A stretch of DNA of 63,277 bases, counting the filler, from Reticulomyxa filosa (taxonomy: Eukaryota > Protista > Foraminifera), in assembly GCA_000512085.1 (NCBI GenBank). It is 17 parts of 17 records of this genome, joined end to end, with 100 filler letters (N's around TTAATTAATTAA, not from the genome) between each part and the next. Parts side by side here need not be neighbours in the genome. Positions count along the whole stretch, not along the records: positions 8,127 to 16,478 come from ASPP01005252.1; positions 16,579 to 20,186 come from ASPP01001436.1; positions 20,287 to 22,703 come from ASPP01029115.1; positions 22,804 to 24,340 come from ASPP01007418.1; positions 24,441 to 27,437 come from ASPP01004782.1; positions 27,538 to 33,229 come from ASPP01004789.1; positions 33,330 to 35,164 come from ASPP01011225.1; positions 35,265 to 36,399 come from ASPP01037295.1; 9 more parts are not named here. The stretch is one strand, 5' to 3'. The translations under genes were made by a program, and so were the position numbers. The notes under the pieces are model-generated. The model ran no database searches. It worked only from the letters and a program-made list of their open reading frames with translations, and had not been told where the DNA came from. Below are positions 11,483 through 36,399 of the stretch, in pieces (the first letter of the stretch is position 1; the number at the start of each line of letters is the position of its first letter).

Positions 11483-11856
11483 TGAAAACGCCCGTGATCA
11501 ATGATGACAAATACTCTAGAACAAGGGGACGACTCAAAAAAAAAAACTTGCTTTTCTGCTGCCCTCATGATGAAGAAAACAAGTAGTACTAAAAAGTGAT
11601 GCTGTTTTAATAATCCAGGACTTATTAACTCATCACAGCAATGTAAAAAAAAATTAGAGTACATAATATTGCTGTGTTTAGCTAATAACATTAATCAAAA
11701 AAAAAGGTCGATGGAAAAAAAATAATCATCGAATGTTTTCATTTGTTTTGCGTGCTGCAAAAGCGCAAGTGACAAAGACAGTGAGAAGGAAGGTTGTAAT
11801 GAGCCCACAAAGAAGAGGAGAAAAAAGGCATGCTAATAGCACACTTGAAAATAATT

Positions 11857-13525: not shown

Positions 13526-14913
13526 CTATCCCCAAACACGAATTTGGCACTTGCTTGAACCATAACACAGATTAATGTCACAACCACGATCATTAATACT
13601 CTTGCAGCTCTTTTTTAATTGTAAAAATTTAAGACATATAATTCCACTGTCTCCTTCTTCTCCTTTGATCATATACAATTCATTCTTATTTGATCGAATG
13701 TCCCAAAAACGAATTGTATTATCACTTGATCCAGAACATATTACATTTGAACTACCACCAACTTCAATATTGTTTACCATAAATGGTGAATATTCAACGA
13801 CATTTACATACCCTGCATGTCCATTGAATATTTGAGTTTGTTGACCAGATCGGATATCCCACAAGCGAGCACTTTTATCATTTGATCCAGATAATATTGT
13901 ATTTGCACCACCACTGATCACTAACTCATTTGATCCATATTTTACACTTCTAATCCAATCGTCATGACCTCTGAATATAATCAATTGCTTGGTTGTTTCA
14001 ATATCCCATATACGAATAGTATTATCCCATGACCCAGAGCAAATGGTATATCCATTACCACCAATCACACCGATACTATTACTGTTATTATTATTATTGC
14101 TTTGCAATGGTGAAATATCCATACACCAAACACCATCTTCATGCCCTTTGAAAACATACAATGATTTGGATGCCTCAACATCCCATAAACGGATAGTATA
14201 ATCAATTGATCCAGAACACAAATATCTACCACCATTAAATGGTGAAAATTCAATACCGTAAACACCATTTGTATGTCCTCTAAATACTTTTAATTGTTGA
14301 TTATCTTTATTATCCCAAAAACGAATAGTTTTGTCCCATGAAGAAGAACAAATGACATTGTGACGATTATTATGATAATGATAAGGTGAAAATCTCACAC
14401 AATATACATGATCTAAATGTCCATTGAACAATTGAATTTGCTTGCCGGTCTCAACATCCCATACACGAACTGTCTTATCATGTGATCCAGAACAAAGTAA
14501 ATAACTATTATCAAATGTTGAATAGTCAATACTCCACACAGAACTAGTATGCCCATCGAACGTATTAAGTAATTTAGATGAGGAACGAAACATATCAAGC
14601 ATGAAGACAGTTGCTGCCTATGTTAAATGATTATGAACAGCAAAAAAATATTTATCATAAAAACAAAAACAAAAACTAACATATTTGACAACAAGTTTGT
14701 CAAAATCATTGATCCATCCTAATTTGATCTCTAATATTCTAATCCAATATTGAATAATGATTTGGATCTCTTCTTCTTCTGACTAACTCAATTGTATATC
14801 ATATAAAGTAAATATAACGAACACGTGAAACAAACAGTTTTTTCAAACATTAAAATGAAACTTACAAATGCTTGTTGTATTGAAATTTGTTTTTCATCAG
14901 TAAATGTAGTCAT
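13526..14913 (-). CDS. WD40 beta-propeller protein of an amplified family with an N-terminal WIR-GWI-DFDK module; exons 14913-14866, 14782-14681, 14617-13526
   Basis: About 7 GH...WD repeats. The two upstream exons join through canonical phase-0 GT-AG introns, giving MTTFTDEKQISIQQAF|SEEEEIQIIIQYWIRILEIKLGWINDFDKLVVKY|AATVFMLDMFRSSS. Confidence 0.92.
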
Positions 14914-15383
14914 AATTTCAGTACTTTTGAGATTGAGTTAAATGATTTAAGATGAAAAATGTCGAACTTTTTTAAATCAAATCAACTAAGGGATTTTCAA
15001 AAACATTTTGACAATACAAAAAAGAGAGTTAGACAGTGTAAACAGTTCTATAAGTAAACAAAAATTTCAAAATTGCATAGTTCCATATTCTAAAACGTTT
15101 TAACAAAAACTGTTGAATCAAGATTGTTTTTTAATTAATCAATTTTTGCTTGGTTATGTTTAAAAAAATTAAGGATTCAATTTTCTTCATGAAGAAACAA
15201 CATTTAAACATAATGTTTTTTCATTTCATTACCAATGACTCTTGAACAAGGATAGATTATGCAAAAAAAAATAAGCAATCTTTAAATTACAAGTCAAAAA
15301 ATTGACATTATGGTAAAAAAAATCAAAAGGTCAAAAAAATTACGCAACGCTTTGCTTTTGCTTTTCATTCAAATGATAATATT

Positions 15384-15490
15384 AACGTTGAAAACAATAA
15401 ACAAGCTCAATCATTCAACGGACATTTATCTTCCGTAAATTGTGTGAAATTTTCGCCATATCGATATCAAATCATTGTCAAAATGTTATT
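15384..15490 (+). pseudogene. Isolated single-repeat remnant of the same WD40 family
   Basis: NVENNKQAQSFNGHLSSVNCVKFSPYRY matches DVETGKQIQLFNGHLDHVYCVRFSPYHY of the neighbouring gene. No flanking ORF. Confidence 0.7.
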
Positions 15491-16179
15491 ACAGTAGTTT
15501 GCAAAAAAAACAGTACACCCAAAAAAAAAAGATGGTTTTTAGTATTTGACTTGTATATCTTTATTGAAAAGAGCTAAAGTAAAAATAATTTTGTAGATAT
15601 ATAGAACAATCACAGACTATCTTTACTATATGCTGTACTATCTTATCTCTTGCAGTTATTTGAAAGTTGTACATTCAATTTTTTTAGCTGGCTTTTACAG
15701 TATGACTTTTTTTTTATAACAAATTTTTTTATATCAAACTGTAAAGAAAAAACAATCCATTTAACAAACGTTTACACTTGTGTTTAAAAGAAGCTTTTAT
15801 GTTTGATGCAAGTATATACTATCCAGTTCTCTTTGTATGTCATTTACAGTTTCATAATTATCAGTTAACAACCACCTGACCACCCGCCTGCGCATTTTAT
15901 CGCGTAATAAATTGTGAGTGTTTTTTCATCATCACTTTCTTACAACAAAATTTTCTAGAGCTTATAAAAGAATATTCATTTTGAAGCGATTCATATTGTT
16001 ATGGAAACTGTAATTGAGCACTCTTTTATTCAAGATATTTACAATTACCTTATCCAAGCGACACAAAAAGACAAAGGGACTAATCTATTTCGAAGTTTTT
16101 TTATGAAACCGAATAATTGTGGATTCCCCCTTTGCAATAACTGAACATTATACTTTGATAATCCATTTTTTCAAAATAT

Positions 16180-16478
16180 CATGTCCAAGGCAAAAGAAGT
16201 CCAATTGATCTGCTTCGCTTATATCGCATCATCACAAAATCTTGTCACTGTACGGGCGTGGCCTCGGCCGAGTTCATAGTGGCCGCACATTATTTGGGAA
16301 CGGAAGCCAATGACCAACAATTGATGGAGATATTTATGGACATGGAAGCAGACATAGAAGGAAAAGAGCCACGAGAGAAGCTGAAAGAGTTAATGGACAA
16401 AGTGAGTCAAAGATATGGGAAGCAGTCGTCGAGTAACGAGGAACACAAAGGAGACGATGCCGCATTCAAAGATGAAAT
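16180..16478 (+). CDS. Hypothetical protein fragment, weakly EF-hand/calmodulin-like
   Basis: Higher-GC open frame running into the contig end: GVASAEFIVAAHYLG..DQQLMEIFMDMEADIEG. Confidence 0.35.
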
Positions 16479-16578
16479 NNNNNNNNNNNNNNNNNNNNNN
16501 NNNNNNNNNNNNNNNNNNNNNNTTAATTAATTAANNNNNNNNNNNNNNNNNNNNNNNNNNNNNNNNNNNNNNNNNNNN

Positions 16579-16719
16579 GAATTAAACAAATGGAAGATAC
16601 AGATACGATTGGAACAAGACAAAGAAAATCCAGCAGTGTGGTATTTGAATGAAGAAGATGTTCAATTGTTTTTTGAAATTGTACCTCAAGGTGAAGATTG
16701 TTTAAGAGTGAGATATTAA
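16579..16719 (+). CDS. 3' end of a multicopy large-protein gene (…WYLNEEDVQLFFE.VPQGEDCLRV), copy 1
   Basis: ELNKWKIQIRLEQDKENPAVWYLNEEDVQLFFEIVPQGEDCLRVRY* is nearly identical to the end of ORF 19886-20185. Confidence 0.8.
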   Translation, partial: ELNKWKIQIRLEQDKENPAVWYLNEEDVQLFFEIVPQGEDCLRVRY

Positions 16720-17120
16720 ATGAAGATTTAAAAAAAGTAAGAGTTGTCACCGATTTATTTCGTTTAATAAAAACATTAATGCTTTTTTTGGAGTTTTTTT
16801 GAAGAATTGAATGATTCGTTTTCTTTGTGCTAAATCTGCTATTTATGTGACAGTTATCCATATATTGAAGGTAATGACAATAGAAACAATAATTCATATG
16901 GTATGACTTTAAAAAAAATTGGTCATTCAGAAGAAACTTTATGTCCAATTTTTGATGAAAATTGTGTCTTTAAATAATTCACAAATCCTTGTTTTTTGTC
17001 CATATTTTGTATTGTCTTCAATAAATGGCATTCTTTTAATTGTCAATCTTTTTTTGTCGATGAAAAAAAATTTCTGAAGTTTAGTTTATGTAAATGATAT
17101 ATGAATGGAATAAATACAGT

Positions 17121-17465
17121 TTAAATATTTTGTAATGGTCTCCACAGTCGAATTGTTCCATCTTCAGAAGCTGAGACAATTGTGTTAGCAACGTATGCTT
17201 TTTTCATTTGGCGATCCACAAAAGAAAATAAAGTAATTGTATCTGTGCTCTTATTGCTCACAAGTTTTACCACAATGTCCCTGCAATTTAACACTCATTG
17301 GATAATCACAGATTGGCTTATACTGATCTTTGGTCATGTGATATGAATAACATTGTCGATTTGCAAAACCACCACAAATTACGAGTTCGTAATTTCCAAT
17401 CGCCACGCATTCCGCGCGCTGAAATGTTGTTGGCAAACTGGATAATTTTTCAAACGGGGGTGTCA
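17121..17465 (-). pseudogene. Chimeric Kelch-5'/WD40-3' pseudogene
   Basis: PFEKLSSLP..ELVICGG..CYSYH..YKPICDYP..GHC(frameshift)VKLV..ITLFSF (Kelch family) runs into NTIVSASEDGTIRLWR (WD40 repeat end). Confidence 0.7.
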
Positions 17466-17919
17466 AAAAAAATGAACGAATAATTAGCTTGGAAAGTAGA
17501 AAAAAAATTGTGGGAATGCAACATTCTTTGCCAAATTTTTTTTGGTATTCAGCAGAAATGCAAAAAAAGTTTATAAAAGGATTCATTTCTAATCACACGA
17601 ATATTTTTGTTATTTGGAATATATTTCTGCTTGAAATGAGAAAAAAGAAGTTTCAATATATGAAAAAGGAATGAACAAATCCTAAGTATAATTGATAACT
17701 TACTGGAATTTAAATATAAATGTCCAGAAATTTGATTGAAGATTGTATTTACAACGTGCATCGTTTGATAAATATAAAAACAATTTCATCAAATAAATAT
17801 AACGAAATAAGTTTGATGGTTGGTTATAAAAATTACTGTTTATTTAAGTTTGTGTTTTGATTGTTAACCTTTTTTTATATATTTTGAAAATGCTTAATTT
17901 TGCTTCTTCAAAATTTATT

Positions 17920-19208
17920 TCATTTATTGTATTTCATAATAATTTTATCAAAATCATCGATCCATCCAAATTTTATTTGTAAAGTTCGAATCCAATATTG
18001 ATTAATACATTTTATTTCATGTTTTGACTGTTCATTATTTATTATTAATACAAATGCAATTAATTTGTGTTTCATCAAAATAAATAAATCATTACCAACT
18101 GTGAAACATCCCATACACACAATCTAGTTTTCATGTGAGTTGATACTGTTGCTTCTTCATCATTTCTTCCTCCAACGATGTGTATATGATTGTCCTCTTC
18201 ACTCAATATTGCAATACAATATTTTAATCGACTAGGTAAAGCATTTTGAAATGTTATCCACTTGTTTTCTCGAATTGAATATTTGTACACTAATTTTGAA
18301 ACAACAACTTCAGCAAATGTATTACCCCATCCACCAAAGAACAAGATGACATTATTAATATGCACATATGCATATGAATAAAATGATGCAATATCATCAC
18401 AAACAGGTAGTTGATGAAATTGGAAAATATTGTTATTTTCATCATATTCAATTGATAATCCTGTCTTCTCTTTAAACAACAGTATTTGAAAATTTTGTTC
18501 ATTTTTTGGATTTGTTTTCATCATTTCTTGTCCTTGTTCATTTTCTGAATTTGATACAAAGCAATGATATTGAATATAATTACTGGTTGGTAAAGTATCA
18601 TGTTTAATAAATTGAAATGTATTTAAATCAAAAACACTAATATTTTTTGGATAATAAGTGATAAATAACAAATGATTGTTGATTCCATCAATCACTGCAC
18701 GCACTCCTCGATAATCATCATTATATCTTCCAATGATAATTGGGTGATTGTGATTGTTTGTGAAAGGAACCCATTGATTGTAATAGTTGAATTTATTTGC
18801 TTTATTTGATATATTATCCCAAACACTTACATATTTCATTACCAATGTATGTTTGTTTTCTCCATCCCAAGAAGATCCAAAAGATAACAAAGTAATTTGT
18901 TTGGTGTCTTTGTTGTTATGATTGCTATTACCTACCAGTTTTACTACACAGTGTCCCCATAATATAACATGACTTGGATATTCACAGATAAACTTGTATT
19001 CATTTTTGAGTATATGATAAGAATAACAAGCTCTTTGTTGATAACCTCCACAAATGATGAGTTCGTGTTTGTATAGCACACATTGAGAGTCAGAAAGTGG
19101 AGTGGGCAAAATCTTTAAACTTTTAAAGAGGGTAACAAGATGTTGATTTTGTTTAGTTTGTTCAGTTTTTCTTTCAGGAGAGTCTTGTGTTGTAGTTTGG
19201 TTATCCAT
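17920..19208 (-). CDS. Kelch-like beta-propeller protein with a C-terminal WIR-GWI-DFDK module; exons 19208-18096 and 18027-17920
   Basis: Kelch-type GG motifs (ELIICGG, ILFFGGW, IHIVGG; YKYSIRENKW). A phase-0 GT-AG intron is followed by SKHEIKCINQYWIRTLQIKFGWIDDFDKIIMKYNK*. Confidence 0.88.
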
Positions 19209-19885
19209 GTTGTTAATGTTGCTGAAAATTTTTTTTAAAGAGGGGGGATTTTTCATGTTTGGAAAAAGAATAACAAGTGGTTTTTAATCCTAATGGCAAA
19301 CGTAATGATAATTGATTGTCTTATGTTAAAAAAAATGAAATATGTATTATTTCAGAAATTGGTTCAAATAATGCATAAAAATATTTGTAATGAGATAATT
19401 TGAAACAAATAAAATCTTTGTTTTTTTTCAAGAAGCATTGCATACTCATCACCTTTTGGAGGAATATGCAGAAACCATTTAAAAACGTTTAGAATAGATC
19501 AATATCTTGGAAAATAAATATTACAAATACCACACTTATTACCAATATTTGCTTTGAGAAATAATGTTTGTTGTGTTGTATTTCGTAGAATGAATAAACA
19601 AGATGTAGAATTCCTTTTTTAAGCACCATTCCTGCTATTAATTTTAAAATATTTTTTTAAAATGATAATAATCTCATTTTAAAGAAAAATGCCAATATTT
19701 AAGTTGGATAAAATAAATGAAATTCCCTTTTTTAAAATCGAATATTATCAAATAGTTTGTCAAATAAACAAAAACAAATAACCAAAAATTTTGAAATGAA
19801 ATAATTCCAAACATAGCATTGGTTCACTCAATAAAAAAAAAACACAATAAATTCCTTTTTTAATATTCCCACATTCAATGCATTT

Positions 19886-20186
19886 TCACTTCACCCTCAA
19901 ACAATCTTCACCTTGAGGTACTGTTTCAAAAAACAATTGAACGTCTTCTTCATTCAAATACCACACTGCTGGATTTTCTTTGTCTTGCTCCAATCTTATT
20001 TTAATCTTCCATTTGTTTAATTCATCTTCAATACTCTTCTTTTTTGGAGATTCATAATCTTCCTTCCATCCACTTAATCTTTTCTTATCTGAAAATTGAG
20101 ATTTTCCACACAATATTTTTATTGGACCATTTTTGAACCTTGTCTTCAATTCTTGTCTTTGAAATGTCATCAAATAACGCAACATA
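19886..20186 (-). CDS. 3' end of the same multicopy large-protein gene, copy 2
   Basis: Open to the contig end and paralogous to 16579-16719. Confidence 0.8.
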
Positions 20187-20286
20187 NNNNNNNNNNNNNN
20201 NNNNNNNNNNNNNNNNNNNNNNNNNNNNNNTTAATTAATTAANNNNNNNNNNNNNNNNNNNNNNNNNNNNNNNNNNNNNNNNNNNN

Positions 20287-20341
20287 ACAATCACAATCAC
20301 AATCACAATCACAATCTCAATATCAATATCAATCTCAATCA
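20287..20341 (+). repeat. (CAATCA)n-type microsatellite encoding a Gln-Ser repeat at the contig start
   Basis: acaatcacaatcacaatc… visible directly. Confidence 0.85.
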
Positions 20342-22030
20342 CAGAAACTTATGGTATCACCACAATCGACATCGACAACAACAAGTACTTCTTCGACGAA
20401 AGCGACAGAGACGAAAAAAGAAAAAAATCCATTTATATTGACGACGACTGATAATAACACGAATGCGACAGCAAAACAGGAGGGGACAGACACGTCTAGC
20501 AAACGAACGACATCTTCGTCGCCACTGATAGCAACGGATGAGGACTTGAAGAGGGACCCTGCCAACCCGTTCAACATGAACCAGATCTTTGGGGACTTTT
20601 CTCGAGCTGCACAAATGCTGTTGAACAAGTCCGGCCAAGGTAACATGGAAGACTTGAAGAAGACTATTCCTCCATTTGATTGGAGTCTGATCAATCCCTC
20701 TGTCTTTGGCGGCAAGTTCGAGGACATTTCCACTGAAGATCGTTCCTATTTCAGTGGTCAAAAGCGAAAGGAATGGGATGCAGAGCAAACCAATTTAACT
20801 ACATCTGCATCTGCATCTACATCTACATCCATGTCTTCTGATGCAAGTGCAACATCATCTCTTCGTCCAGGCTCGACCGCACCAAAACTAAGCAAACGAG
20901 AACGCGAAGAAATGAACGCGAAAATGGGAACGAGTGCGGAAAATGCAATGAGCTATATCAAACCCACCAACGATGGCACCACGACATCGGGCCCCCATTG
21001 ACTTTTCCGATCTCAAGAATTTCATTGGATTGGACATTGAAGAGATGATCCAGGATGAACAAGTTTGGCAAGGACGGACCAAAGAAGGCACTCTTGTATC
21101 CTGGCACGACAGCTTGCACTCCATCGATTCTGGTCCTGCTTTGTTCATTGCACATGAATTCTTTGACGCTTTGCCCATCTCCCATTTCCAGTATCGTCCT
21201 CTTGGCTGGATCGAAACACTTATCGGCGTCGATGAAGGTGAAGACTCGCCTTTCCATTTCCTCCTCACCAATGCCGAAAACACCACCTTTGCAGGAATGG
21301 CCTTAGATAAGCAATTTGCAATGGCAGGAATTCGACCTGAAGTGGGTCAACAACTTACTTTGTTACGTTAATATATATACATGTATTTATTATTTTTACT
21401 TTACTTTTGAACTTTTATTGATAATCTCAAAAAGATGTCCAGTTGGAAATGAAATTGCATCGGATATGGCCAAGTGGGTGGCCCAGCATGGAGGTGCAGG
21501 ATTCATTATTGATTATGGATCTGAAAATCCTCCTGCATGGACAGTACAAGGTGCAAAGGCACACAAACCCACCAATGTCTTGTCGCAACCCGGTGATGTG
21601 GATATTTCTGCTCATGTCAATTTTGGCCATTTGAGAAGTGCTATGAAAGCTGTTCCCGGAAGTTTTTTATTTTATTTGAGAATGTTTCAATTCGTTTTGT
21701 TTATATACATATGTGTACATAAATATGAAAATAGTCAATGTTTTTGGTCCAGTCACACAAAGCTACTTCTTGCAAGGTTGTGGAATAGTCCATCGTTTTA
21801 AGCATTATCTAGATAACAATATCAAAGACGAAGCAGAAAAAGAAAAATTTATCAAAACTTTTTGTCGAATTATGAATATTGATCAATTGGGATCCCACTT
21901 TCAGGTTTTAGGATTTGCTCATAAAAGCATTGGCACACCTGTTGGCTTCCGAGAACCACTCTCCGTTAAGGACTCTAAAATAGATGAAAAAGGAATACCA
22001 TTATGGGCTAATCAAAAGATTACTTCATAA
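20287..22030 (+). CDS. NDUFAF7: Mitochondrial complex I assembly arginine methyltransferase NDUFAF7/MidA (5' partial; 2 introns; apparent frameshift near 20990)
   Basis: GRTKEGTLVSWHDSL..FIAHEFFDALP..FQ..GWIE; GGAGFIIDYG; PGDVDISAHVNF; GPVTQSYFL; LGSHFQVL. Confidence 0.88.
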
Positions 22031-22498
22031 ACAACAATTCATTCCCTTATCCTTTCCATTTCTTATTCGTTCACTCTTCTTTTCACGAAACATGCAAAAC
22101 AAATTTTTCACTCTTGAATTAATCAATACTATTTTGAATTGTGTATTTTTTTTTTTTTTTGCTTAAAACAAAAAAAAGTATACTTTTGATGTCTAAACAA
22201 CTCCAAAAGATAAGTGTAAAAAAAAAAAAAGGAACTTTGCTGTTGTCACGAAAGCATTTTGCAATAAACCCAAAAAAAAAAAAAAACAAGTCTAATTGTA
22301 ACTCACAAAAGTCATTAGATAATGATAAGTTTTCATCATCAAACAATAAGATTCCATTTACACTTTTGATCTATCCAATTTTTTGAAAGAGATATTATCT
22401 CGTTCTCAAAACCAGCTTTTTTTTTTAACACGTTCAAACTTGCTCTATTCTGAGGATACTCCCACTCATCAAAAAAAGATCTCATCCGCAGGTAATAG

Positions 22499-22703
22499 AT
22501 GAATGAACAAAATTTTAAACTTGCAGAACAATTGATAGGGAAAACGTATGCATCCCAAGGCTATGCAAGTCGAAGGTCAAGAGAAAATCTTGTGAAGTCG
22601 CTGTTGTCAAACGTAAGAAAAAAACCAAAACAATAACAATAATAATTATTATTATTATCATTAAATAGAGGAGAATACCAAAAGAAGGATGGGATGATGA
22701 AAG
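22499..22703 (+). CDS. SEPSECS: O-phosphoseryl-tRNA(Sec) selenium transferase, 5' end; exons 22499-22612 and 22669-contig end
   Basis: MNEQNFKLAEQLIGKTYASQGYASRRSRENLVKSLLSN|RRIPKEGWDDE matches the eukaryotic SepSecS N-terminus (Y..QG..ARR..E.L...LL.....P..GWD). Intron is GTAAG..TAG, phase 0. Confidence 0.85.
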
Positions 22704-22803
22704 NNNNNNNNNNNNNNNNNNNNNNNNNNNNNNNNNNNNNNNNNNNNTTAATTAATTAANNNNNNNNNNNNNNNNNNNNNNNNNNNNNNNNNNNNNNNNN
22801 NNN

Positions 22804-22815
22804 CAAAAACAAAAA

Positions 22816-22847
<32 letters not shown>

Positions 22848-24310
22848 GTTCGGAGGTACTTCTTTTTTTAAAAAAAAAAAAAAAAGTAGTGAGAGAATAA
22901 ATTATTTTTTTTAAATTTAAAAAAAAAGAATGTTTCGAAACTGACTCCAAAATATTGGCATTTGGAGTTTGAGTGATTTGATCCCTGTTTTGATTGGAAA
23001 CGAGAGCAATAAGCTCGGAGGGCTGGCTTTGCAAATGGCGTGTGGAGTGATGCAATGGAAGGAGTTCGATTGTGCCTGCAGCGCTCTCGGTGGATCTGGC
23101 TCTGGACGAAAGCGGTGCCATTTCGGGAAACTCATCGGGCTCCATGTCTTTCGCGGGACTGCGTGTGGTCTTGGAAGCCTCTTGAGGGAGGGAACGGAGG
23201 GTACTTTGATAATCCAAAGACTGCTCCGAATATAGAATCTTGAGAATGGAGAAGGTGACAACAATAAAGCTCGCCAGCAGCGAGGCCAAAATACTGGAGC
23301 TAAACAATGTACGTGTTTTGAGAACGACATAGTATTGCAGAACAAATGCTGGATATGATTGATAGATGACTTCCTATTTAAATTGTAATGACAATAACAA
23401 TAATCATAGTTATGTTATTCAATATTAAAAAAAAAAAAGATATACGTATACGTATACATATACACATATATGTATATTATAACCCAAAGTTTGAGTAAAT
23501 GAAATTCCTTGTCCAATTCTTGCTCTTCTTCTGTCCAATGTTTGAAGGATTTGATAGCATAAAAAGCTCTGCCGACGCCCAAAAAAGTGAGGATTTGGTG
23601 GTAACAACGATTTGTTTGAGTGAAGACAAAGTGACTTTGAGTCTTTCCTGTCTCTGTATTGAACATCGACTTTTTGGCCCATCCCTTCACTCCGCGGATA
23701 TATAGTGCACTCAACGCGTGCGAGGCCACGGTGAACGTCAATTGCATTAGCGCCCACCAGTACTCTCCAGCTTCAAACCAAACTGCTATCAAGTTGATAT
23801 CTTGTATTGTCATTTGTTGTTGTGCCAAAGGTTATATGTATGCCCAAGAAATTTCCAGAAATTTCCAATACACACACACACACACACACACAAAACAAAA
23901 TGACACACCAGTGGTCAGATCCAGAATATTCAGAAGCATCATGCAAATGGTAAAGCCAAATCGACGCAAATGAGGCTTTCCAGATAATAAGAACATGGAC
24001 ATGAAAGGGACAACAATCAAGTACATTTCGCTCCAAAAGATGCCAACGAAGGAGACGGAGCTAAAACGAAAGACGGACACAAAAAACGCGACAAAGATGG
24101 CATATGCAATCACAATGGCACCAAACCAACTTCGAATCACGATGAAAGTCCAATAGAATACAAATGGCACAAGTATCACGGTGATCCATATTGCAAATTG
24201 TAAATGCAATGCGCCATAGCAATAAAGGAGCCCTCCCAAGATTGCCAACGAAAGCAGGCCAAGCCAAAAGGCTCTTATATCACGTCCCAAGCAGCAATCG
24301 CACCAATTGG
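22804..24310 (-). CDS. XK-related (XKR) multi-pass membrane protein, partial, multi-exon
   Basis: LDLTT|DINLIAVWFEAGEYWWALMQLTF..SH; LLKLW|EVIYQSYPAFVLQYYV..SILASLLAS follows the XK pattern D...D, W..L.L.F, E...ES.PQ..LQ. Confidence 0.7.
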
Positions 24311-24440
24311 CTAATAATGATAATAATAATAATAATAATANNNNNNNNNNNNNNNNNNNNNNNNNNNNNNNNNNNNNNNNNNNNTTAATTAATTAANNNN
24401 NNNNNNNNNNNNNNNNNNNNNNNNNNNNNNNNNNNNNNNN

Positions 24441-26711
24441 GTCCTTGTCCTTGTCCTTGTCCTTGTCCTTGTCCTTGTTGCAATTGCATTTGGACGGGCG
24501 CATATGTGGAATGCGTGAAAATTGTGTTTTCTGGCAATGATAGCGAAGGAGCTAAACCGTGCTGTTGCGTTGCAGACGAATGACCCTCATGCGTGACGGC
24601 GGTCAGTGTGTTGCTGTGATATCGCAGCAATTGCAAGTCGTGCTTCTGCTGCGGCGGTTGAGGGATGGCGCCTCGAGGCTGCGTTTGGCTGTTTTCTTGC
24701 GACTTGACGTCCAACGCGACGGGGTTTGACAGATGCCAATATCCAATCGATTCACTGTGATGGCTTTTTGGAGAAGGCACCAGCAGCTTGATCGGAACTG
24801 TCGATCCGGAGCTCATTGGAGCATGAGGTGATCCATTTTCTGCTATTAGACTTCCGCTGGTTGTTAGTACAAACCCACTGCTGTTATTGCTTGCATTGTG
24901 ATTATTATCATTATTATTATTATTATTAGTGTTATTATTAGTATTATTAGTATTATTATTATTAATTGTGCTGTTGTCAGTCACTTTTCGCATTGCTACT
25001 GGATTGCCAAATTCGTCATACAATATCACTGCACCACTGCTTTGAGTCTTTCTCATTCATAAAATTATATACATACGCATACATGTACGTATATATGTAT
25101 GCTTATTTATGTATGTATATATCAGTTTGTTGGAACAAAACTGGTACGGTCATGCTTGGGATCGAATACATGCCACTCCTTTTGAATGTAATATGTAGAT
25201 TCAAACAAAGCATGAGTAAACAAATAAGCAAGTGACATACAATACTGACTTGGTAATTGTTTCTCTGCCAGTCCTTCCCCTCCCCTGTTTTTCGCGTTAA
25301 ACACTGGACTGGTTGTTGTTGTTGTTGTTGTTGTTATTTATTGTCACAGAGTGAAATAAACAGCTTACGTTTGAATAATGGAGTGCTGATGATCCGCAGC
25401 CATACTTCGCCTTATCTGGATGTGTACACAAATCGCGCATAATAGCAACCCACAGCAAGTTCCAAAGAACACACTCAGTACAATAACTTGCATTTGTCAA
25501 TAATGCGATCCAATTAACAAAACACATTTTTCTTTTTTTTAAGGTTTACTTTCCGAAACAAAAAAAAAAAAAAAAAAAATTAATATTGATAATAACAATA
25601 ACAATAGTATAATATAAACCTCTTAACTAGCAATCATCTCAGACGTCAATTCTCCATTTTGGGTCTCACTAAATGCTAGATTTGGGCTGACAATGAACGA
25701 AGACTCTATTACGCTAATTGTTGTCGATATCCCTGTTGCGTTTAATTTGCTTTGAGTGGGATCACTAGGCTGTTTATTTGTTTGTTTGTTTTATTATTAT
25801 TACTATTGTTTGTGAGCCATTCCATATTAAACCTTTTTTTGTTTATTATTTTTAGAATAGAGTTTTGTAACATAGCTAGGATAGCTGATGAGGGGAGTAA
25901 AACAAGGTACAATCCTTGACAATCGCCATTGCAATGGCAAGTACTCGAGTGTGGGCTGCAATTCATTGTCTCATCATTAATTGCATCGCTATACTCTGAT
26001 GTCATCTCACATCGGCTCGTGTTGCCTATGTTACCAAAACAAATAATAATAATAATAATAATAATTTTATTATTATTATTATTTTATTATTATTTTCCTC
26101 TCCTCTCATTTTTTTAAAATGGGGACATGACACAAAAACTATACCGTGGATATATGTGCGTATATTGCATATACATATACATGTATGTATGAACATCGGA
26201 GAAAATAGAAAATACCGTGACAAGTCATGACACCACTTCGACAAGCGTCACTATTGTAACACCCCTTGAAACATGTAATCGCATCAAGTCCTTCTGTTCC
26301 ATTTCCATTGGATTTGCAGTACAGGCTGACTTTGTCACAAGCGCCTTTTCCTTCCGTACATAGTGCACTTACGTTTTTATTACTATATACGCTTACATTA
26401 CTGCATGCATCTGTCCCTACACATTCCAATCTCACACCCGTCGCAGACTCATACGCGGGACATTTTATCGTCAGATTCGTGCATTGATGAATTGCTATTC
26501 ATGTGATAGTCCATTGTGTATGTGTCTATTTGCTGTATTGCAAGTGGGCTATAAATCAATATACAAAGACACTCCGTTAACTCGAGCAACGAACTACAAA
26601 GGTTGAAACTCCGCTACAGGTCAGCTCCCCGCTAATTTCGCCGAAAACAGAACCAAACAAGCTAAATACAACATATAACGTGGAAAAAAAAAATGAGGTG
26701 ATAATAACCAT
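24441..26711 (-). CDS. Probable type I membrane protein: signal peptide, Cys-rich ectodomain, one TM, N/Q-rich cytoplasmic tail (3' partial, multi-exon)
   Basis: Hydrophobic N-terminus at 26711; LECVGTDACSNV..LCTEGKGACDKV..CYNSDACRSG repeats; TM-like VLSVFFGTCCGLLLCAICV (~25430-25490); poly-N and QG repeats. Exon joins not fully resolved. Confidence 0.55.
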
Positions 26712-27119
26712 TTGAAGTGATTATTGGTCGAACGTAGACCACCTTTTTTCTGTATTATCCTTTTACTCTACCCCGACAAAAAGGGAGCTGTCGAGTGATA
26801 AGAAATGATGAATTTTTGGTGGAAGACAAAGAGACTCTTTTGCTTTCAAATTATTGTGGACGAAAGTCTCGTAAAAGTAAAGAAGAACTGTTTTTGTTGT
26901 TAGTTATATACTTTACAACACACATTCTCACAAAAACTGCTCAAAAACTATTTGTCCATTCGTGAGTTTTTAGCTTTTTCCGACCCGAGTCTCGGTTCGA
27001 GTTGGAGTAGAAATGAAATATCACATCACTTTTATATAGCGCTCATTATTCTTATAAGAAATGACACCCCCTTGCTCAATAATATCGAGCAAGATTGTGA
27101 TCCAAAAAAAAAAAAAAAA

Positions 27120-27340
27120 TTAATAGCCGAAGCGCGAGGCCAATCGTTTGGATTGTTCCCAAGCAACAAGAGTTAAGATTGTATGGGGTCCAAGTCTGAA
27201 ATAATGAGGGAACCACCCTTTCATCAATCCTTGAGGCCCTTCCGTTGCGACGATTTTTCTCAAGCAATTGATAGCACTTTTGTACTTCTCCCCGGGATTT
27301 TGGTTGTACATTCGCGTGGCAATCACATCAAAGGGGTTCT
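27120..27340 (-). CDS. Mitochondrial carrier (SLC25) last exon, OAC1/SLC25A34-35-like
   Basis: PFDVIATRMYNQ..CLRKIVATEGPQGLMKG..YFRLGPHTILTL carries the carrier signature. Confidence 0.85.
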
Positions 27341-27537
27341 AACATCAGTGGATTTACCAACAAAGGTCAGTTGTGTTGAAAGGGTTATCTTGCACAAAAA
27401 ATCTCAAAAAAAAAAAAAAAAAAAAAAATTTTTTTTTNNNNNNNNNNNNNNNNNNNNNNNNNNNNNNNNNNNNNNNNNNNNTTAATTAATTAANNNNNNN
27501 NNNNNNNNNNNNNNNNNNNNNNNNNNNNNNNNNNNNN

Positions 27538-30500
27538 CGCCATTGCCAGAGGTACCCAAGTGTCTGCGAACAGCACTCAATACCAACTGTTATTGAGAAT
27601 AACGTATTTAATGCTTGCACAACAACCAAAGACGCAATATTCAATGGAATACTTGTTACATATGACTGGCGAACTGCTTTGGACCTTGTTCACAATCTCT
27701 GAAGCTTTCATCTGAGTCCAAATGTTTCAATTGGATAAAATCTTTTGAGCTGCTGTCTTTTGTCTTGTTACAGCCGCAGGAGAAGAGCCAAACAATGACA
27801 TATCAATTACTTTTCCGTTCATGTCAATGATAACGGCGACTACCTCCATTGCGCTGATAGATAACCTAGCCCATATACGATGTTGGCGTAGTGCACAGCC
27901 CATCACTGGCTCGAATGAATTGGTTGTGCACATTGCATGGATGCTACATGAAAATAGCAGCCATTGACTACTATTGTCGTCGTACCAGTCATATTTTCAC
28001 ACTGTAATGATATCCGACTATTGGGACCTTGGATTGTAAATATCGATGGTTATATTCTTTTGGTTGATTGTGACTTTTTCTGTAATACGTGATCGAGCTG
28101 CTTGTCAACTTTGATATTGTTTGCTTGTCGAGAATAGATTAAGCCAAATCTTTGCGCGCTGCTGTATGATTTTTCATCAAATTGGGATTGAGTCCAGAAG
28201 TATGATCAAACAATATTCATATACTATCGATACAAAATAGTTGGTGTCGACAAAAAAGTGGAGTGGCAATGGTGCAGCAATTGAGTTAAACGCATGCAGC
28301 GAAAATGGTGCATTGCAAGCAGTAAATTCTTGCATTTCGCACTTCTTTTCGACAATCCATTTGGAACGTCTTCAATACACCGAATCGAATCAACGCCAAT
28401 ATTTTACAAGAAGGTGGACCACAACGTGACTCAAATTAAAATAAGAAATTAAATTTTTCGACACGTGGAAGAATGACATCAATCCAAAATTTTTTGTACT
28501 GTAATATTCAAGCCCACTCCACCACACGACATTCGCTTGACTGTTGGTATTCACTCATTGTATCGTTCCGTACTCGCAATTAAATAAATGGCTAAATATA
28601 TTCGCATCTTCCATCCGGGTATGATCCTACTAATAATATTTCCACACATCAACTCTGTGTTGTCACATCATTCGTTGTATCCACAGGTTGAATTCACTAC
28701 CTTTGTTATATTCCAATGCAAATATCAACAAAAAATAATCCACACTAGAGACTGCCACAATTGGTACTGCAAAACGTAATGTGCCGATTCTTGTTAGACA
28801 AAGACTCGCACGTCTATGCATTGACAATAAAGATCATCCTCCTTCTTCACGCTTGAGAAATTGCCACAATCTGTCGTCATGATTCATCTTCGATAATTTT
28901 GCGCCACTTGCGACTGTTAACGGATATGCGCACTGTAATTACTGTTTCACAACTCCGTACCTTGATTTTGCGATGACATTTAGATATCATGCATTTCAAT
29001 TCGCAATGGGTTTATCTTTGCCACTTGTCGTACCGGTTTGATGATGCTCCATTTACCTGGCAGCTCGGGGTCTTTGTTGCTGTACCATTTTGTTCAGTAT
29101 ATAACGCTATTTGTGAGACAGGCCCGTTCTTGTTCTCTACTGTCAATATAATTAATTAATGTAATTGAAAAAACACAACGAACTGGCACACTCCAAAACG
29201 ACTTTTCAACAACCATAATCGCCAGGACACATTGACAGCTCGCAACACGCACTGTGTTCACAACTATAGTACAAAGGCGTGGAAAGATATTGTATAATGT
29301 GTTGTTGAGAATACCGATAGAGTTACCGTTTGATCTCGTGTCGAGGAGGATATGAAGGGTGCAGGCATAGTAAGAACTGTCGCAGTAACAACATTCGATA
29401 ATTCCACGTCGCACTAACGCTCGTACGCTGGACTGATCGAATTAGCGCAATAGCAGTAATAACTGCAAACCAAAAACAAAAAAACAAAAATCTTTTCTGC
29501 CTCTTATGGCTTGGATGTACATGCCTGGACATGATTGAATATGATTGAATATGATGACGCGATAAAGCGCAACGAACGAATAGCGACTGTTATAATATAT
29601 AACATATTTTCCACGATATTTTTGATCATCGCATACACATCGGAAACAAACTGATGATCGAATATACTTGGGTACGAGCACGATGGATAACTCGGTCCAA
29701 AGTCGGCCTCACAACAAAATGGGCATGTAGAAATATTTGGGGCCTATGTCGGTGGATACCACGAATATTGGTTTGATGTTTGAGTATATCCATGTGAAAA
29801 AGACCGTGTAGGTCGTTGCATAGTATATCAATCTGAGTGGTGTGCTGAAGCGCAGATCGAATGGCGCAGATGCAACGAATAGTCGTTATCCACTGTACAT
29901 GTATTCTCAAAACCCAGCCCACATCAAATGATCCTTTGCCTCACTACATTCCATCGCGCTCATTCCTCCCAGCAAAATGATTTTCGCGCAATTTGAAGGC
30001 TTCTATCTGGATATGATTCAACTGGCCGGGACAGTCGAACTGTTCGTCAAAATTTCTTACAGCGCCTCCACATATACCCATTTGATGATAGCAAATCTCT
30101 TGATTGCATCGCACTAAACTTTCACAGGAACATCAAATGCACTTTTTTTGTTTGCGCATATATGTAAAAAATACGTATTTTATTGTTACAAAAAAGAAAT
30201 TGGGGAAACACACTGGAGTAGTATGGGAATGAGAAAAAAGTAGAATGTGATATGATTTTTTTGTACACTGACCTTGTTGATATTCTGCCGCTGTCTTCGC
30301 TTTCAATTCCTATTTTTATTTTAAACAAGTAATTTGAAAAAAAAAAATTAATTTATTTTACTTAACTTTTTATTGTTGAGATCATCAGATCTAATAATTT
30401 TGGAGTCATAGCTCCATATGTAAAAAAAGTTTCTTTTTTTTTTTCTTTTTTTTTTTCTTCTTTTCTTCTTTTTTTCAACCAGTTTTTTTTAATTCTTATT

Positions 30501-31200
30501 TCTTTCTCTTTTTTTCTTTTCCCCTTTTTATTCTTACTTCCCCTCTTTTTTATTCATATCTTTTTTCCCCACTTATTTTCTTTTTTTTTTCCATAATATT
30601 TTTTATCCATCTTCCCCCTTTTTTCCCCCTTCTCCAATTTCTTCTTAAAAAAATCTTTGGATCCTTGTTCATCTGTATAAACACAAAAAAATATTGTAAA
30701 AATTTTTAAGATCAACAAAAAAAAACATACATGTTATGTGGAGTTCAAGCTCACATTCCAAATTTTTTCCTCCTGTGGACAAACTCAAACTTTTTTTGTT
30801 TATGTATGTATGTATTGGACAACAAAAATATATATATAATTTTTTTTCTTTGTGCGGGGGAATTCCTATGTATTACACAAATACACAATCACATTATTTT
30901 GATAAAAGAAAATTATAAATATATAAACACAACATACCGCTTTTTTTTTATCGAAAACCTGGTGGTCTTCGACCCCTTTTTTTTTTGTATGTGGAGTGAA
31001 GGGGCAAATATGTAACGGTTTTGTGTGGACAGGGGATTCCTATACACAAGCAACATTACATTGATATTTTTATTATAAAAAAAAAGATATATCGAAACCT
31101 TTTTTGCTCCTTTTGGAGATAGGGTTGGATTCACCCCATTTTTTCTCGTCGTTGTTGTGTTGTTCTCGCGTCATCGTCCTATGTTATTTTTTATACGTTC
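27538..31200 (-). pseudogene. Decayed copy 1 of an unidentified dispersed gene/element family
   Basis: Coding-like composition without a long ORF, with collinear DNA similarity to 59888-62177. Strand is inferred from GT..AG intron-like segments. May extend to ~32270. Confidence 0.6.
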
Positions 31201-33329
31201 AAAAAAAATCATAAATTGTTTTTTTTACATTTATTTCAAAACAAAAAGTGTGCAAATATATACGTATGTTAAAAAATGTTTGAGGTACCAATTGTCATTG
31301 TCGTCTTGCTCGTGATCGACTTGCCCTTTTTTTTGTTGCGCCGTCGTTGTGATGAGACTGCCATGTATGGCCTTTTTTTTTGCGACAACATCGTTCGTCA
31401 CGTTCAACAATTTAGCAATGCGCCTATATATTGACGCGATTTGAGATAAGTGCATGAATATTGAACATCAACACCGGCCAACAGTATACACACAATCACT
31501 GTAAGGGCCCTTCTATTTTCAAATGCATATAGGGCCCACATAATGCCATTTGGATGCCACTCTGTCTGTTCCACTGGCTTGTGCAATGTCATCATAACAT
31601 TCACTCCCAGCTTATGTTGATCAAACATACCATCAGTGCCATTGACAATATAAATCTTGATTTCCACACCAACGTTGCCAATTATCCCATCGTTTGTGCT
31701 TGCATTGTCTTGCCTCGTATGTCGCCATCGTGGCCTTGACTCGAGCAAAGCATTAACTCTGAGAGTCTCGGCGTGTTGTCTATTGTTTTTTTTTTAAATT
31801 ACAAAATTAAACATAGTGCCATTTTGTGTTGTCAAAGTTTTTTTTACATGACTCCATCTTTTTTTTTTTTAAATTAAAAGAAAGACATAATGAACTTACT
31901 GGATTGCAATGTCGCAATCAAGTGACTCATTTTTTTTTCAAATCTCGTGATTGGGCGCGCATCTTCTGCCCTTATATTCCAAATTTGTGTGATTGTAGTG
32001 TGTATATAATCGGTGCGATGTTTGATTTTATTGGTAATGTGATTGTCGATATAATAATATATTTGATGGTTGTTTGTGTGGCCTTTGCACCCGTTAGATT
32101 TGGCTGTTGTAAAAAGACTTGTTGGACGTTGACTGTCAATTTTTAAATTAATGTGGACATCATTTGTGGAGTGATATTGATAAGGTGTGATCATCCTGCA
32201 ACGCCAGCACAGACTCCTACTTGACCAAAAAAAGAAGAAAAGGGTTTTTACGATTACGCAACTGCACAACTTTCATTAAAAAAAAGAAATTGGTAATTTT
32301 CAATTTCAATTAACATATTTCATCAAAATAAAATACTTTTGATTCAAATATTTGATCAAAACAACTTTGAGATACTTTTCACGTCAAACAGGAAAAAAAA
32401 GTTCTAGACTAAAAAAAGTTTTTGTTGAAAATCTAAATCTAGCAACATTTCAACAAAATCTTTCAAATGAAAACTAGTACCGCGTTATTGTTCCTTGACA
32501 TCTATGACTTTCTAAGTTTTTTAAGCTTTTCTTACGACGCTGTTGCAACGAAAACACAGTGCAAGACCTTCTAAAGTTAATTAAATAGTACCCAACTTTT
32601 TTTCATTTTGAAATAAATAGCACAAAAAAAAAAAACAAACAAAAAGAACAGACTTCAAAATGAAAAAAAAGAAAGTCTAGACATAATACAGTGCAGAAAG
32701 TAGTACTGAGCCCACAGGCAAATAGTTTATTATTACTAATGAGAAGACAATAACATCCCTTTTGTAATCATTGCAAAGAGGAACGGCTGGTGCACTCTTG
32801 GTTGGTGCAGGCAATGCCCACAAAAGCGATAATAATAAAAAAAACGATAGATACACCACTTTTTTTTGTGTTGGCCCTTTTTTGATGTGGGCACTAGCGA
32901 ACTTTTTGTATATTTTATGTTAACGTATAACAAACAAATATTTTTAAAAAAGTGTTTGTAAAAATTAGAAAGAAAACAAAACAATTTTAATATCTTCTTT
33001 CCAAAGGTAATTGAATCAATAAAGCGAAGAATAAACAATCAAATCATTTCCTTGATAATCAAATACAATGAACTGGAGAAAAACGATCTACTCACATTTT
33101 TAATTTTTTCCATACATTTCTTTTTGAGGATATCATTTTAATTATTATTAACAAAACTCTATCTATTCATCTAATTGTAAAATTTCACAAGTGCAATTTT
33201 ATATCTATTTTTTTAATTTAGCTGTTAATNNNNNNNNNNNNNNNNNNNNNNNNNNNNNNNNNNNNNNNNNNNNTTAATTAATTAANNNNNNNNNNNNNNN
33301 NNNNNNNNNNNNNNNNNNNNNNNNNNNNN

Positions 33330-33368
<39 letters not shown>

Positions 33369-33369
<1 letters not shown>

Positions 33370-34657
33370 TGAACGGTCAAGTCCAGCCAACGATAACAAT
33401 TGCACAAGGAGAATGGCTTCGTTTGCAGCTACTGGATGCCGATCCACAAGGATCGTTTATGCCTTTGTTTGAAGATCCTCTTGACAATTGCGAATTTTAT
33501 TACATTGCTGCTGATGGTATTTTCTTTGACAAGACTCGTAACTTGGTTTCGTGTTATACTTATATATATATATATATATATTTACGTATATACATACTTT
33601 TTTTTTTTGACATTGTCTCACATACAGGATAAACAAGATTAAAAACAAACATTTCAACATAAAAAAAAAAAAAACAACATATTTTTATACACATACGCAA
33701 AAGAAACGATCTCCATATTATGGACAACTGTACTTGTCAATGGGAGGACGTGCGGAAGTGATAGTAAAGTGTAACGTGCCGGGTACGTATCGCGTGCGGA
33801 ATACGTTTGCCTATCCAGCGAACCACACTGTGTTTCAGACGCTGCAGTGCAACCCGGTGTATCAAACGAACGTGACACTATTTAACATTGTGGTGAATTC
33901 CACGACAGTGGCGGCGAACAGTGCGTTGGACCCTGAAGCATTGGCGTTTCCACCCAAAGTAGGTTATTTGGCGGATACGATTCAAACGGCAGAAGTAATC
34001 CACAGTGAGCCTCGGTGCACGAATTATGACACGACCGAGTTTCCACATTTCCTGTTGAAAAGGTTCCCCGACCCGAAGAACACGTCAGTGTGTTCCACAG
34101 TGTCCGCCGACATCAATGACTTTGGACAACAAGAATTGACGGCCAAGTTGTTTGGGATCAATGGTCAGTATTTTCGTACAGACCTTCCACTGGCTGTTGT
34201 CGCACCCAATCAAATTTATGAGCTCTCGATTATGTTCTTCTCGCACCCATTCCACCAACACATCAATCCGTTCCAGCTCACCTCGAACATTAGCAACGGC
34301 TTTATTGGCCAGACTGGAGAATGGAGAGATGTCATTAGCAGTGGCTGTCCTCATCATTGTGTCGCAAGTCCAACTGTGCCTTGTTTCAAAGCGCGCACAC
34401 GCACTCAGGATTACACTGGAAAAGTTATCATGCACTGCCATTTTTTGCCTCATGAAGACAGGGGAATGATGGGCTTTTACGAGATTTCGGATGAATTGTG
34501 CACTAATGGCACCTCTTCACCCTTGCCAGACAACCATCAGTCTTGTGATATCACTCAATCTTCCTATCAGTTCTGTCTTCTCTCCTCACAATCGAACAGA
34601 AATGATGCCCTTTCTGCCATGTTTGTTGTACTTTCGATAATGTTGGCATTTTTTTAA
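33369..34657 (+). CDS. Multicopper oxidase (domains 2-3; 5' partial) with a hydrophobic C-terminal tail
   Basis: VNGQ..P; IAADG; GGRAEVIV; HPFHQHINPFQ; WRDVI; MHCHFLPHEDRGMM (T1 ligands H, C, H, M). Confidence 0.92.
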
Positions 34658-35264
34658 CAACTTTGCTTAGTTTGTGTACAAATATTTTTGCTGTTTTTTT
34701 TTTGCTCTTGTTCTTTTATTCGCTTATCTTGTTCAAAATTGAAATTCAAAAAAAAAAATCATTCATCACAAAAACGTAAAATTTTGTAGCTGAAAAAGTA
34801 TTAATCATGCCAGGTAATTTGAGTTGCCAAAAAGTGAAAAGAACCAAATTCAAAGTTTAAATTTTTTCATAAATTGTTACAGATAAGTTTTCATGTCCGT
34901 CTTTTTGAGTGTGTTGGACGGTCGTCACAAAAATGTAATACGAAACCACATTTGCCCTTTAAGCTAGATTTCAATAACGAATGTAAATTAAAAGAAATGA
35001 AACACAAAGAACAAGTAAAAAGTGGATGAAAAAGATGAACGAGGAAGTTTAGGGGAAAAAATTCTCAACTTCCTTAGAAACTTTATTGTCAACTCTTCAC
35101 TTTTGCACTTTTTTGGCGTGCTTTAAAAAAAAGTGCAAATGCTCTTGATAATTGTAAAAATGAANNNNNNNNNNNNNNNNNNNNNNNNNNNNNNNNNNNN
35201 NNNNNNNNTTAATTAATTAANNNNNNNNNNNNNNNNNNNNNNNNNNNNNNNNNNNNNNNNNNNN

Positions 35265-35500
35265 TGATGATGGATATATTGATAATAATAATTTGTGGAC
35301 ATGGAAAGCTAGAAATATATTAGTGGTAAACGATAGAAGCTCTTTATCAATTGACAAAATGCGTACAATATTGAATTGCCATGAAATGGACTCTTTCAAG
35401 ATTTTCCAAAAATATTTATTGGAACAAATATAAATATAAATATGTCATTATATGGACATAATGACGATGGATTTTTTGATCATTTGGTCAGGTTACACAA
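35265..35500 (+). pseudogene. Frameshifted caspase-like (peptidase C14) domain remnant
   Basis: Across three frames: LIIIICGHG / ILVVNDRSSLSIDKMR.ILNC / DFPKIFI / GFLIIWS, in caspase motif order (SHG…PKxFI[D/Q]ACRG…DFL..YS). The ACRG segment is missing. Confidence 0.5.
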
Positions 35501-36069
35501 AAACAAATTGCAGGTCAAATGATTCATTTGAGACTTTTGTTGTTTTTTATTTTAAGTTTCAAATATTTTTGCAAAATTCAATTAACCACTTTGATCATAA
35601 AAATAGTTTTTCCTTGCTTAAGAACATCTATGGAAATTTATATTGTTGTATCTTCTTCTGAAATATTCAAATAAAATGATATAAATAGACTTTCCTTTGG
35701 ATTGAATTTACAAAGTTGATCATAAACAAATTGTTTTGTTGTAAGGAAGACAGATGTGTAAGATCTAATGCTATTTTTAAATGAAATATGAAAATTGAAA
35801 TGAAATTGTTAACATTAAAGGACTAATTATAAATTTACAATTTATTCTGAAAAGCATTTGTGCTTACACAGATTTAATATAAAATTCAAAAATAAGTAAC
35901 ATTGTATTGAAAATTTTTTGCATTGTAAAATTGTTGTTACTGATTATTGTAATGCAAAGATATTTTACAAAATGTAACATTTATTTTTCATTTCAAAATA
36001 TTTCTTATGTATACATTAGTTCAGTTTTTCCTTTTTTAAACAAAAGTTCAAATATATTTTTCATCTTGC

Positions 36070-36399
36070 ATCATGAAAGAGTATCTCAAGAGAAAACTAA
36101 AAAAGTTATAAGAATCAACTCAAACTTATTAATGAAAGTTAAGTCTAAGTTGTCTTTACATTTTTATTATTTCTTTTATTTATCGTTATTACATGTAATT
36201 GAAATAGTCAAAAGAAGAAGAAGAGACCCAAATCATTATCATCATTGGATTCGAACATTAAACATTCAATTAGGGTGGATCAAAGATTTTGATAAACTCG
36301 TTGTCAATTATTTAGTTTATTTGTTCTTTCTTTTTTAAAATATTAATCAAAATATTCAAATGTTTATTTAACACAGGTATTTCCTGTCTTCATGTTTGA
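36070..36399 (+). pseudogene. 5' part of a WD40-family pseudogene carrying the WIR-GWI-DFDK exon (36208-36311)
   Basis: AG|TCA AAA GAA GAA…, a 1-nt frameshift before HWIRTLNIQLGWIKDFDKLVVNY, loss of the donor GT, then acag|gtatttcctgtcttcatgtttga homologous to exon 3 of the gene at 13526-14913. Confidence 0.8.

Follow-up and report, generated by a model that had tools for sequence, protein, structure and literature searches.

How does one short exon come to stand before a WD40 propeller in one gene and behind a Kelch propeller in another, and what would its product do in both places? The question is raised by a stretch of 63,277 nucleotides of the foraminiferan Reticulomyxa filosa (assembly GCA_000512085.1), which was analysed as a whole and is called the window here; it consists of short contigs joined by N-linkers, and three copies of the exon sit on three different contigs, each beginning at AG|TCA. 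The original prediction regarded the exon as a mobile module shared by two amplified propeller families and as a tag through which one partner would read out a variable receptor repertoire. The answer to which the present data point is that the module is a lineage-specific box that would dock variable propeller substrate receptors on one common ubiquitin-ligase adaptor, a reading to which we give slightly less than an even chance of being right.

Copies 1 and 2 translate exactly as had been described, and the exon start positions of the three copies differ among themselves by in-frame codons. With copy 1 as the query, tblastn detects copies 2 and 3 (E values of 2e-11 and 4e-9) and no fourth copy in the window, the next best match having an E value of 0.63. 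In the WD40 gene the first exon of 48 nt, an intron of 83 nt, the module exon of 102 nt and an intron of 63 nt follow each other in phase 0, as the original prediction had it for the module exon; phase 0 is likewise found upstream of the module in the Kelch gene (Table 1). The introns rest on the sequence and on paralogue gene models rather than on RNA; since intron sequence is left in the public models of the two window genes, splicing was deduced from those paralogue models whose junctions are clean. The exact database matches of the window Kelch and WD40 genes are the R. filosa proteins P0003 and P0123. Copy 3 is frameshifted, as had been noticed, by a 1-nt deletion and has also lost the splice-donor G; it is identical to copy 1 at 157 of 207 nt, the match extending through the next intron into the following exon.

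Among the 120 Kelch relatives listed, a two-sequence profile detects the module in 59, every time after the propeller, and among the 120 WD40 relatives listed it does so in 67, every time before the propeller, the window genes being included in both counts. Most of the module-less models look like gene-model errors: among the 61 Kelch models there are 43 intron read-throughs (37 by an earlier, stricter pattern), five coil tails and 13 others, and among the 53 WD40 models 30 starts at an internal Met, six exons in the wrong frame, three coil heads recognised by rule and 14 others, five of which carry coil or TRAF heads by eye. A 34-sequence profile run against 1.84 billion representatives gave 204 matches at E ≤ 0.001, and R. 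filosa was the source of all 18 that were looked up among the best 150 of them. In 149 of these best 150 of 204 matches a Pfam survey, giving at most five families per protein, returned WD40, Kelch or nothing, bar one zf-TRAF, one weak NACHT (E 0.005), one DUF3839 and one weak OB match. The DUF3839 match (E 1.8e-5, P0259 residues 56-136, overlapping one module) was rejected as the identity of the module since it occurs in one of 149 proteins and never with isolated modules. The tabulation of partner domains that the original prediction had set as a check yields, for the best 150 of 204 profile matches, a module almost confined to propellers, in keeping with one shared partner. Metagenome scans yielded no confirmed locus, neither among 153 pattern matches of the module nor among 139 of the Kelch alignment, and none was confirmed among the 18 pattern matches of the module in viral sequences. 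At a density of three copies in 63 kb, the 101.9-Mb assembly (PMC13746701) would hold thousands, but the window was picked for having them.

Judged from the sequences of all 120 proteins of the window WD40 family, designated WD40A, their propellers are a fixed scaffold with a hypervariable predicted top face. Mean pairwise identity is 0.15 in 24 top-face columns, fixed by their place in the repeat (GH-x is followed by two, the next Val by one, and SGS-x-D contains one) and selected after the conservation plot had been inspected, as against 0.72 in the 307 other columns; 24 control columns from the loop after the WD dipeptide have an identity of 0.71. Values below 0.2 occur in 20 of the 24 top-face columns and in 8 of the 307 others, and Trp, Tyr and Phe make up 28% of the residues in the former as against 11%. 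In the Kelch propellers 24 of 325 columns fall below 0.2. These hypervariable columns support the variable receptor repertoire supposed at the outset. The assignment of the WD40A columns to the top face, and their mapping to the repeat numbering of the fungal HNWD proteins, follow what we take to be the geometry of WD40 propellers. Their spacing matches that of positions 11, 12, 14, 30 and 32, which are among the diversifying sites of HNWD repeats (PMC12222747, available text), and WD40A resembles the HNWD proteins in combining a conserved blade scaffold with hypervariable positions at the surface.

The module itself, 33 residues long, is constant. Altogether 275 copies were classified in 274 of 388 retrieved proteins, and in the 235 full-length copies W12 is present in 97%, R14 in 93%, G21 in 97%, W22 in 98%, F26 in 92% and Y33 in 95%, these residues being kept in all four architecture classes. 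Constraint on the module was another check set at the outset, and in the Kelch-terminal position it is supported by 47 Kelch-linked copies found through their propeller, in which the two Trp columns depart from the consensus once in 94 residues, the mean over columns being 9.2 of 47; peptides from 30 intron read-throughs are alike to 38% in residues 3-12 and to 58% in residues 3-7. Four of the nine invariant columns of a 28-protein Kelch alignment lie within the module, and it is kept before WD40A and a second WD40 family, WD40B, which are only about 30-35% identical.

A different head or tail may take the place of the module. Eight of the 120 WD40A models (P0180, P0221, P0191, P0138, P0143, P0172, P0222 and P0242) lack the module and begin instead with a coil or zf-TRAF/coil head, the zf-TRAF of P0180 being recognised by Pfam with an E value of 2e-6. 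On a 29-row FastTree of the propellers these eight are scattered, with eight label changes of which at least three are forced by supported branches, so that either heads or propellers are being exchanged; in P0325, from a contig of 949 bp, a TRAF-type head is joined to module-WD40A. Coil tails stand in place of the module in the Kelch models P0032, P0029, P0067, P0073, P0090 and P0107, and P0032 runs into a region that UniRef names caspase p20, a name that Pfam and PDB do not confirm.

The docking-box reading is preferred because the module is constant and constrained, was found almost only on two unrelated hypervariable propellers and is interchangeable with a TRAF-finger head. According to it, the propeller proteins would be a repertoire of variable receptors, possibly serving defence; the top face would bind diverse targets and the module would recruit a cullin-type ligase, most plausibly through a helical cleft of DDB1 type or a divergent adaptor with the Elongin-C/SKP1 fold, and the paralogues headed by a TRAF zinc finger or coil would do the same job in a single chain. 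TRAF7-type proteins have an architecture of RING, zinc finger, coil and WD40, and the zf-TRAF, coil and WD40 of module-less models such as P0180 resemble it, except that the propeller comes from the same hypervariable pool as in the module-bearing genes. The F-box receptor expansions of plants and nematodes, in which a constant adaptor box is combined with a fast-diversifying recognition domain under birth-and-death turnover, offer the same combination of a constant box and a variable domain, although the module has no F-box match. Like the VHL- and SOCS-box receptors of CRL2 and CRL5 (cullin-RING ligases), the R. filosa proteins have a helical box, short and of comparable length, at one or the other end of the recognition domain. 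In the Kelch receptors KLHDC2, KLHDC3 and KLHDC10 the box is C-terminal, as in the Kelch genes studied here, and the hydrophobic i, i+4, i+8 spacing is present in both halves of the module. The module differs from the CRL2/CRL5 boxes in having no [STP]L start, Ile, Val or Leu where Cys, Ser or Ala is required and no cullin-box Pro, and has the invariant W, R and G-W instead. In the DCAF receptors of CUL4-DDB1 (DDB1- and CUL4-associated factors) the helical H-box motif adjoins the start of the WD40 propeller (PMC13061254, available text); likewise, in the AlphaFold2 model of module-WD40A a helical segment leads straight into the first strand of the seven-bladed propeller, and the WDxR motif occurs twice in 66 of 70 WD40A proteins. 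Differences from the DCAF receptors are the additional C-terminal position on Kelch propellers and a helix-loop-helix that is not predicted. The presence in the window of a gene annotated as DCAF8-like (Table 1) indicates that the CUL4-DDB1 pathway probably exists in this organism.

Several results weigh against this interpretation. The module matches no Pfam family, F-box, SOCS, VHL and LisH included, in runs with 34 and 32 members at E values up to 10, where filters remove most matches above about 0.1. Nor was there any named match, again including these four, among PDB sequences; short local profile matches to rBAT, P2X3 and YPEL5 were judged to be chance. The ESM Atlas gave no usable match by features and no named family by structure. 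The database label of the window WD40 gene, 'F-box and wd40 domain protein', has no F-box domain match behind it in the tests made, and the LP start of the F-box motif occurs in none of the 235 full-length copies. A strict BC-box, (S,T,P)LxxxC/S/Axxx-phi in the available text of PMC4878042, is present in 0 of the 235 (nine if any aliphatic residue is admitted at position 2), the Cul2-box phi-P-xx-phi-xxx-phi in one, and the Cul5-box LP-phi-P in none (consensus from the available texts of PMC4878042 and PMC13342108), so that the canonical BC-, Cul2- and Cul5-boxes fail; the Cul2-box spacing without its Pro is present but unspecific. When the N-termini of the few homologues of the window DCAF8-like gene were compared with the module, three DCAF6-like proteins of insects and three further DCAF-like matches gave no score; DDB1-binding motifs themselves have very low sequence similarity (PMC13061254, available text), and the module may still belong to that class. 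WDxR is absent from 16 of 20 WD40B proteins. AlphaFold2 models the module alone confidently as one continuous helix, without helix-loop-helix, and in its context as a single helix (residues 7-39, pLDDT 59-71) ahead of a first strand at 42-49 and a well-modelled seven-bladed propeller; a kink at the conserved mid-module G-W is plausible. Fold searches, which covered residues 37-333 only, returned generic WD40 propellers. The RING-like Cys/His pattern of the P0180 head was seen by eye only, Pfam giving no RING. Finally, dN/dS of copies 1 and 2, the one codon comparison available, varies with the method (0.23/1.15 by NG86 and 0.21/0.17 by LWL85), and module identity is barely above that of the whole proteins (69% vs 62% and 65% vs 63%).

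This small excess of identity, together with a column conservation in the module that resembles that of the propeller, would also be expected if the module were a linker or capping helix without a partner of its own, spread as a passenger of recent gene amplification; the choice of copies by similarity moreover favours intact ones, and one of the three window copies is broken. We nevertheless regard this explanation as improbable, given the strong heterogeneity among sites with a near-invariant Trp in Kelch-linked copies, the share of the module in the invariant Kelch columns and its retention before two such distant WD40 families. Pairing of propellers, either Kelch with WD40 or two of one kind, by a LisH-like dimerisation motif, so that split genes re-form a two-propeller unit with combinatorial specificity, is unlikely too, though a more serious competitor. 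LisH motifs dimerise the Kelch protein muskelin and the WD40 protein Wdr26, subunits of the CTLH complex (PMC9932110, available text), which gives a precedent for one short helical motif on both kinds of propeller in connection with an E3 ligase, although those are single-copy conserved genes and here there are hundreds of variable paralogues. The module is retained in both halves of the fusion architecture described below, its hydrophobic positions have a 3-4 spacing with a wide face, and in the monomer model it is not confidently packed, all of which would suit dimerisation. On the other hand, the LisH tag considered originally found no match in Pfam or PDB sequences, and CTLH gave no match either; a fixed external partner would account at least equally well for the invariant W, R and G-W across divergent subfamilies.

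A partner outside the ubiquitin system is suggested by the likeness to the fungal HNWD proteins HET-D and HET-E, in which a WD40 scaffold has a few hypervariable positions per blade, with the spacing already mentioned, and N-terminal heads are exchanged between paralogues (PMC12222747, PMC4986451, available texts). The module would then dock the propellers on a scaffold or effector of an innate-immune or self/non-self system, in the manner of NLR adaptor domains, and the occurrence of the same propellers with zf-TRAF/coil heads, with Kelch coil tails and with the caspase-p20 name in UniRef is in line with it. A homotypic adaptor, however, would be expected on effectors, and among the 149 models there are only the zf-TRAF and the weak NACHT, both of them maybe chimeric; the caspase name is the unconfirmed one. 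In contrast to the HNWD proteins, there is no NACHT in the window genes, blades within one protein are only 29-53% identical (six proteins), so that high internal repeat identity is missing, and variation is read between paralogues. This alternative is rated as clearly unlikely. A broader version of the docking-box reading would see here a germline-encoded repertoire of constant and variable parts, in which two propeller folds share a new cullin-recruitment box read by a foraminiferan-specific adaptor, and module, TRAF and possibly caspase-like heads are swapped by recombination, the whole being an intracellular immune or self/non-self system; we consider this doubtful, if still a realistic prospect.

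Of the mobile exon proposed originally, the two positions on two families are supported, and mobility by exon shuffling, in the form stated, is not. The 275 copies comprise 125 module-WD40A, 54 Kelch-module-stop, 30 module-WD40B, 22 Kelch-module with a longer tail and 11 Kelch-module-WD40B fusion models, and in 33 models the module stands alone. A tail of two or four residues follows the module in 39 of the 76 Kelch-module models without WD40, and six of the fusions have a charged coil before the module, which the other five (short fusions) lack. The Kelch-module-WD40 models explain both positions without an exon hop, and the trees group the Kelch-terminal modules with short fusions, from which they would thus derive. 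In the module tree (80 rows, 33 columns) one branch (support 96) unites 20 of 21 Kelch-stop and three of four short-fusion modules and lies among more diverse WD40B-linked modules. In the Kelch tree, a quick tree of 35 rows with a midpoint root from which two short rows were dropped, long-branched coil fusions lie outside a star (93) of Kelch-stop genes, short fusions and coil-tailed models. The WD40 tree gathers all five short fusions on a single branch (92) and places the coil fusions at scattered points. The doubtful WD40B assignments P0188, P0160 and P0349 were excluded from the trees. Modules of Kelch and of WD40 genes fall into two clades, a split that needs a single label change (98/95), and frequent exchange of the module between Kelch and WD40A genes was rejected, 0 of 103 copies being misassigned.

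The C-terminal copy in Kelch genes most likely arose by truncation of a Kelch-module-WD40 fusion with loss of the WD40 part, on trees that have a midpoint root only, leave most forks unsupported, are built from gene models only and, in the Kelch star, are silent on single versus repeated truncation. The ancestral setting would have been module-WD40 or Kelch-coil-module-WD40, and loss of WD40 would have left Kelch-module-stop genes with the module still under selection. A relic gene about 400 bp downstream of the window Kelch-module gene, with a Kelch start and a WD40 blade (Table 1), fits such fusions and is likely a collapsed one; none of 300 shuffles reaches the 14.1 bits of its blade, the shuffle maximum being 6.0. 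One shuffling event is possible for the sharing of the module by WD40A and WD40B. The symmetric phases, 0/0 in the WD40 gene, are weak evidence for shuffling, since phase 0 is the commonest class of intron phase.

None of the titles and abstract openings listed in the literature searches describes the module or these families, and the available passage of PMC12475580 is a species list only. Within the literature searched, we regard as new only the module, the history of its fusions and the variable propeller faces; the WD40 and Kelch expansions may already be reported in the R. filosa genome paper or its supplements. Expansions that combine a constant box with a variable domain are known in fungi (PMC12222747, PMC4986451, available texts), and none was found for Rhizaria in the literature searched. 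If the docking-box reading is true, the new adaptor box would extend the short list of cullin recruitment motifs. The hypervariable faces open a direct approach to the question of how a large, network-forming amoeba might sense parasites or non-self.

Table 1. Positions of the module copies, their genes and related features in the window
Feature	Position	Strand	Basis
Short first exon of the WD40 gene, 16 codons	14866..14913	-	ATG 14913, GT donor 14865, phase 0; paralogue models with similar first exons
Module copy 1, exon of 102 nt with phase 0 on both sides, N-terminal to WD40 propeller	14681..14782	-	Translation, intron phases
WD40 propeller exon, family WD40A, hypervariable predicted top-face positions, two WDxR motifs	13526..14617	-	Pfam WD40, paralogues, variability, WDxR count
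Kelch propeller exon of 1113 nt; the intron after it has 68 nt and phase 0	18096..19208	-	Pfam, paralogue match, phases
Module copy 2 with two further residues and stop, last exon of the Kelch gene	17920..18027	-	Translation, phases
Module copy 3, WD40A type, broken; next exon from near 36377, cut by contig end	36208..36311	+	Sequence, tblastn
Relic gene: frameshifted Kelch start and one WD40 blade	17139..17499	-	Kelch part E 1e-17; blade 14.1 bits
Gene annotated DDB1- and CUL4-associated factor 8-like, partial, N-terminus cut by contig start; close paralogue P0392	51153-53536	+	Annotation

Upstream of the WD40 gene and on the opposite strand there is a short, stop-bounded WD40-like fragment at 15384-15476 (+), a weak tblastn match with an E value of about 0.1. 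The neighbours on the contig of copy 1 are ordinary ones, a protein kinase at 8541-10022 (+) and an ASF1 histone chaperone at 10919-11497 (-). Elsewhere in the window, two tandem paralogous membrane-protein genes at 1714-4473 (-) are alike in their layout of two open reading frames, and a fragment of a TPR-repeat gene at 41671-41979 (-; TPR_12, E 1.6e-14) possibly belongs to another amplified sensor family.

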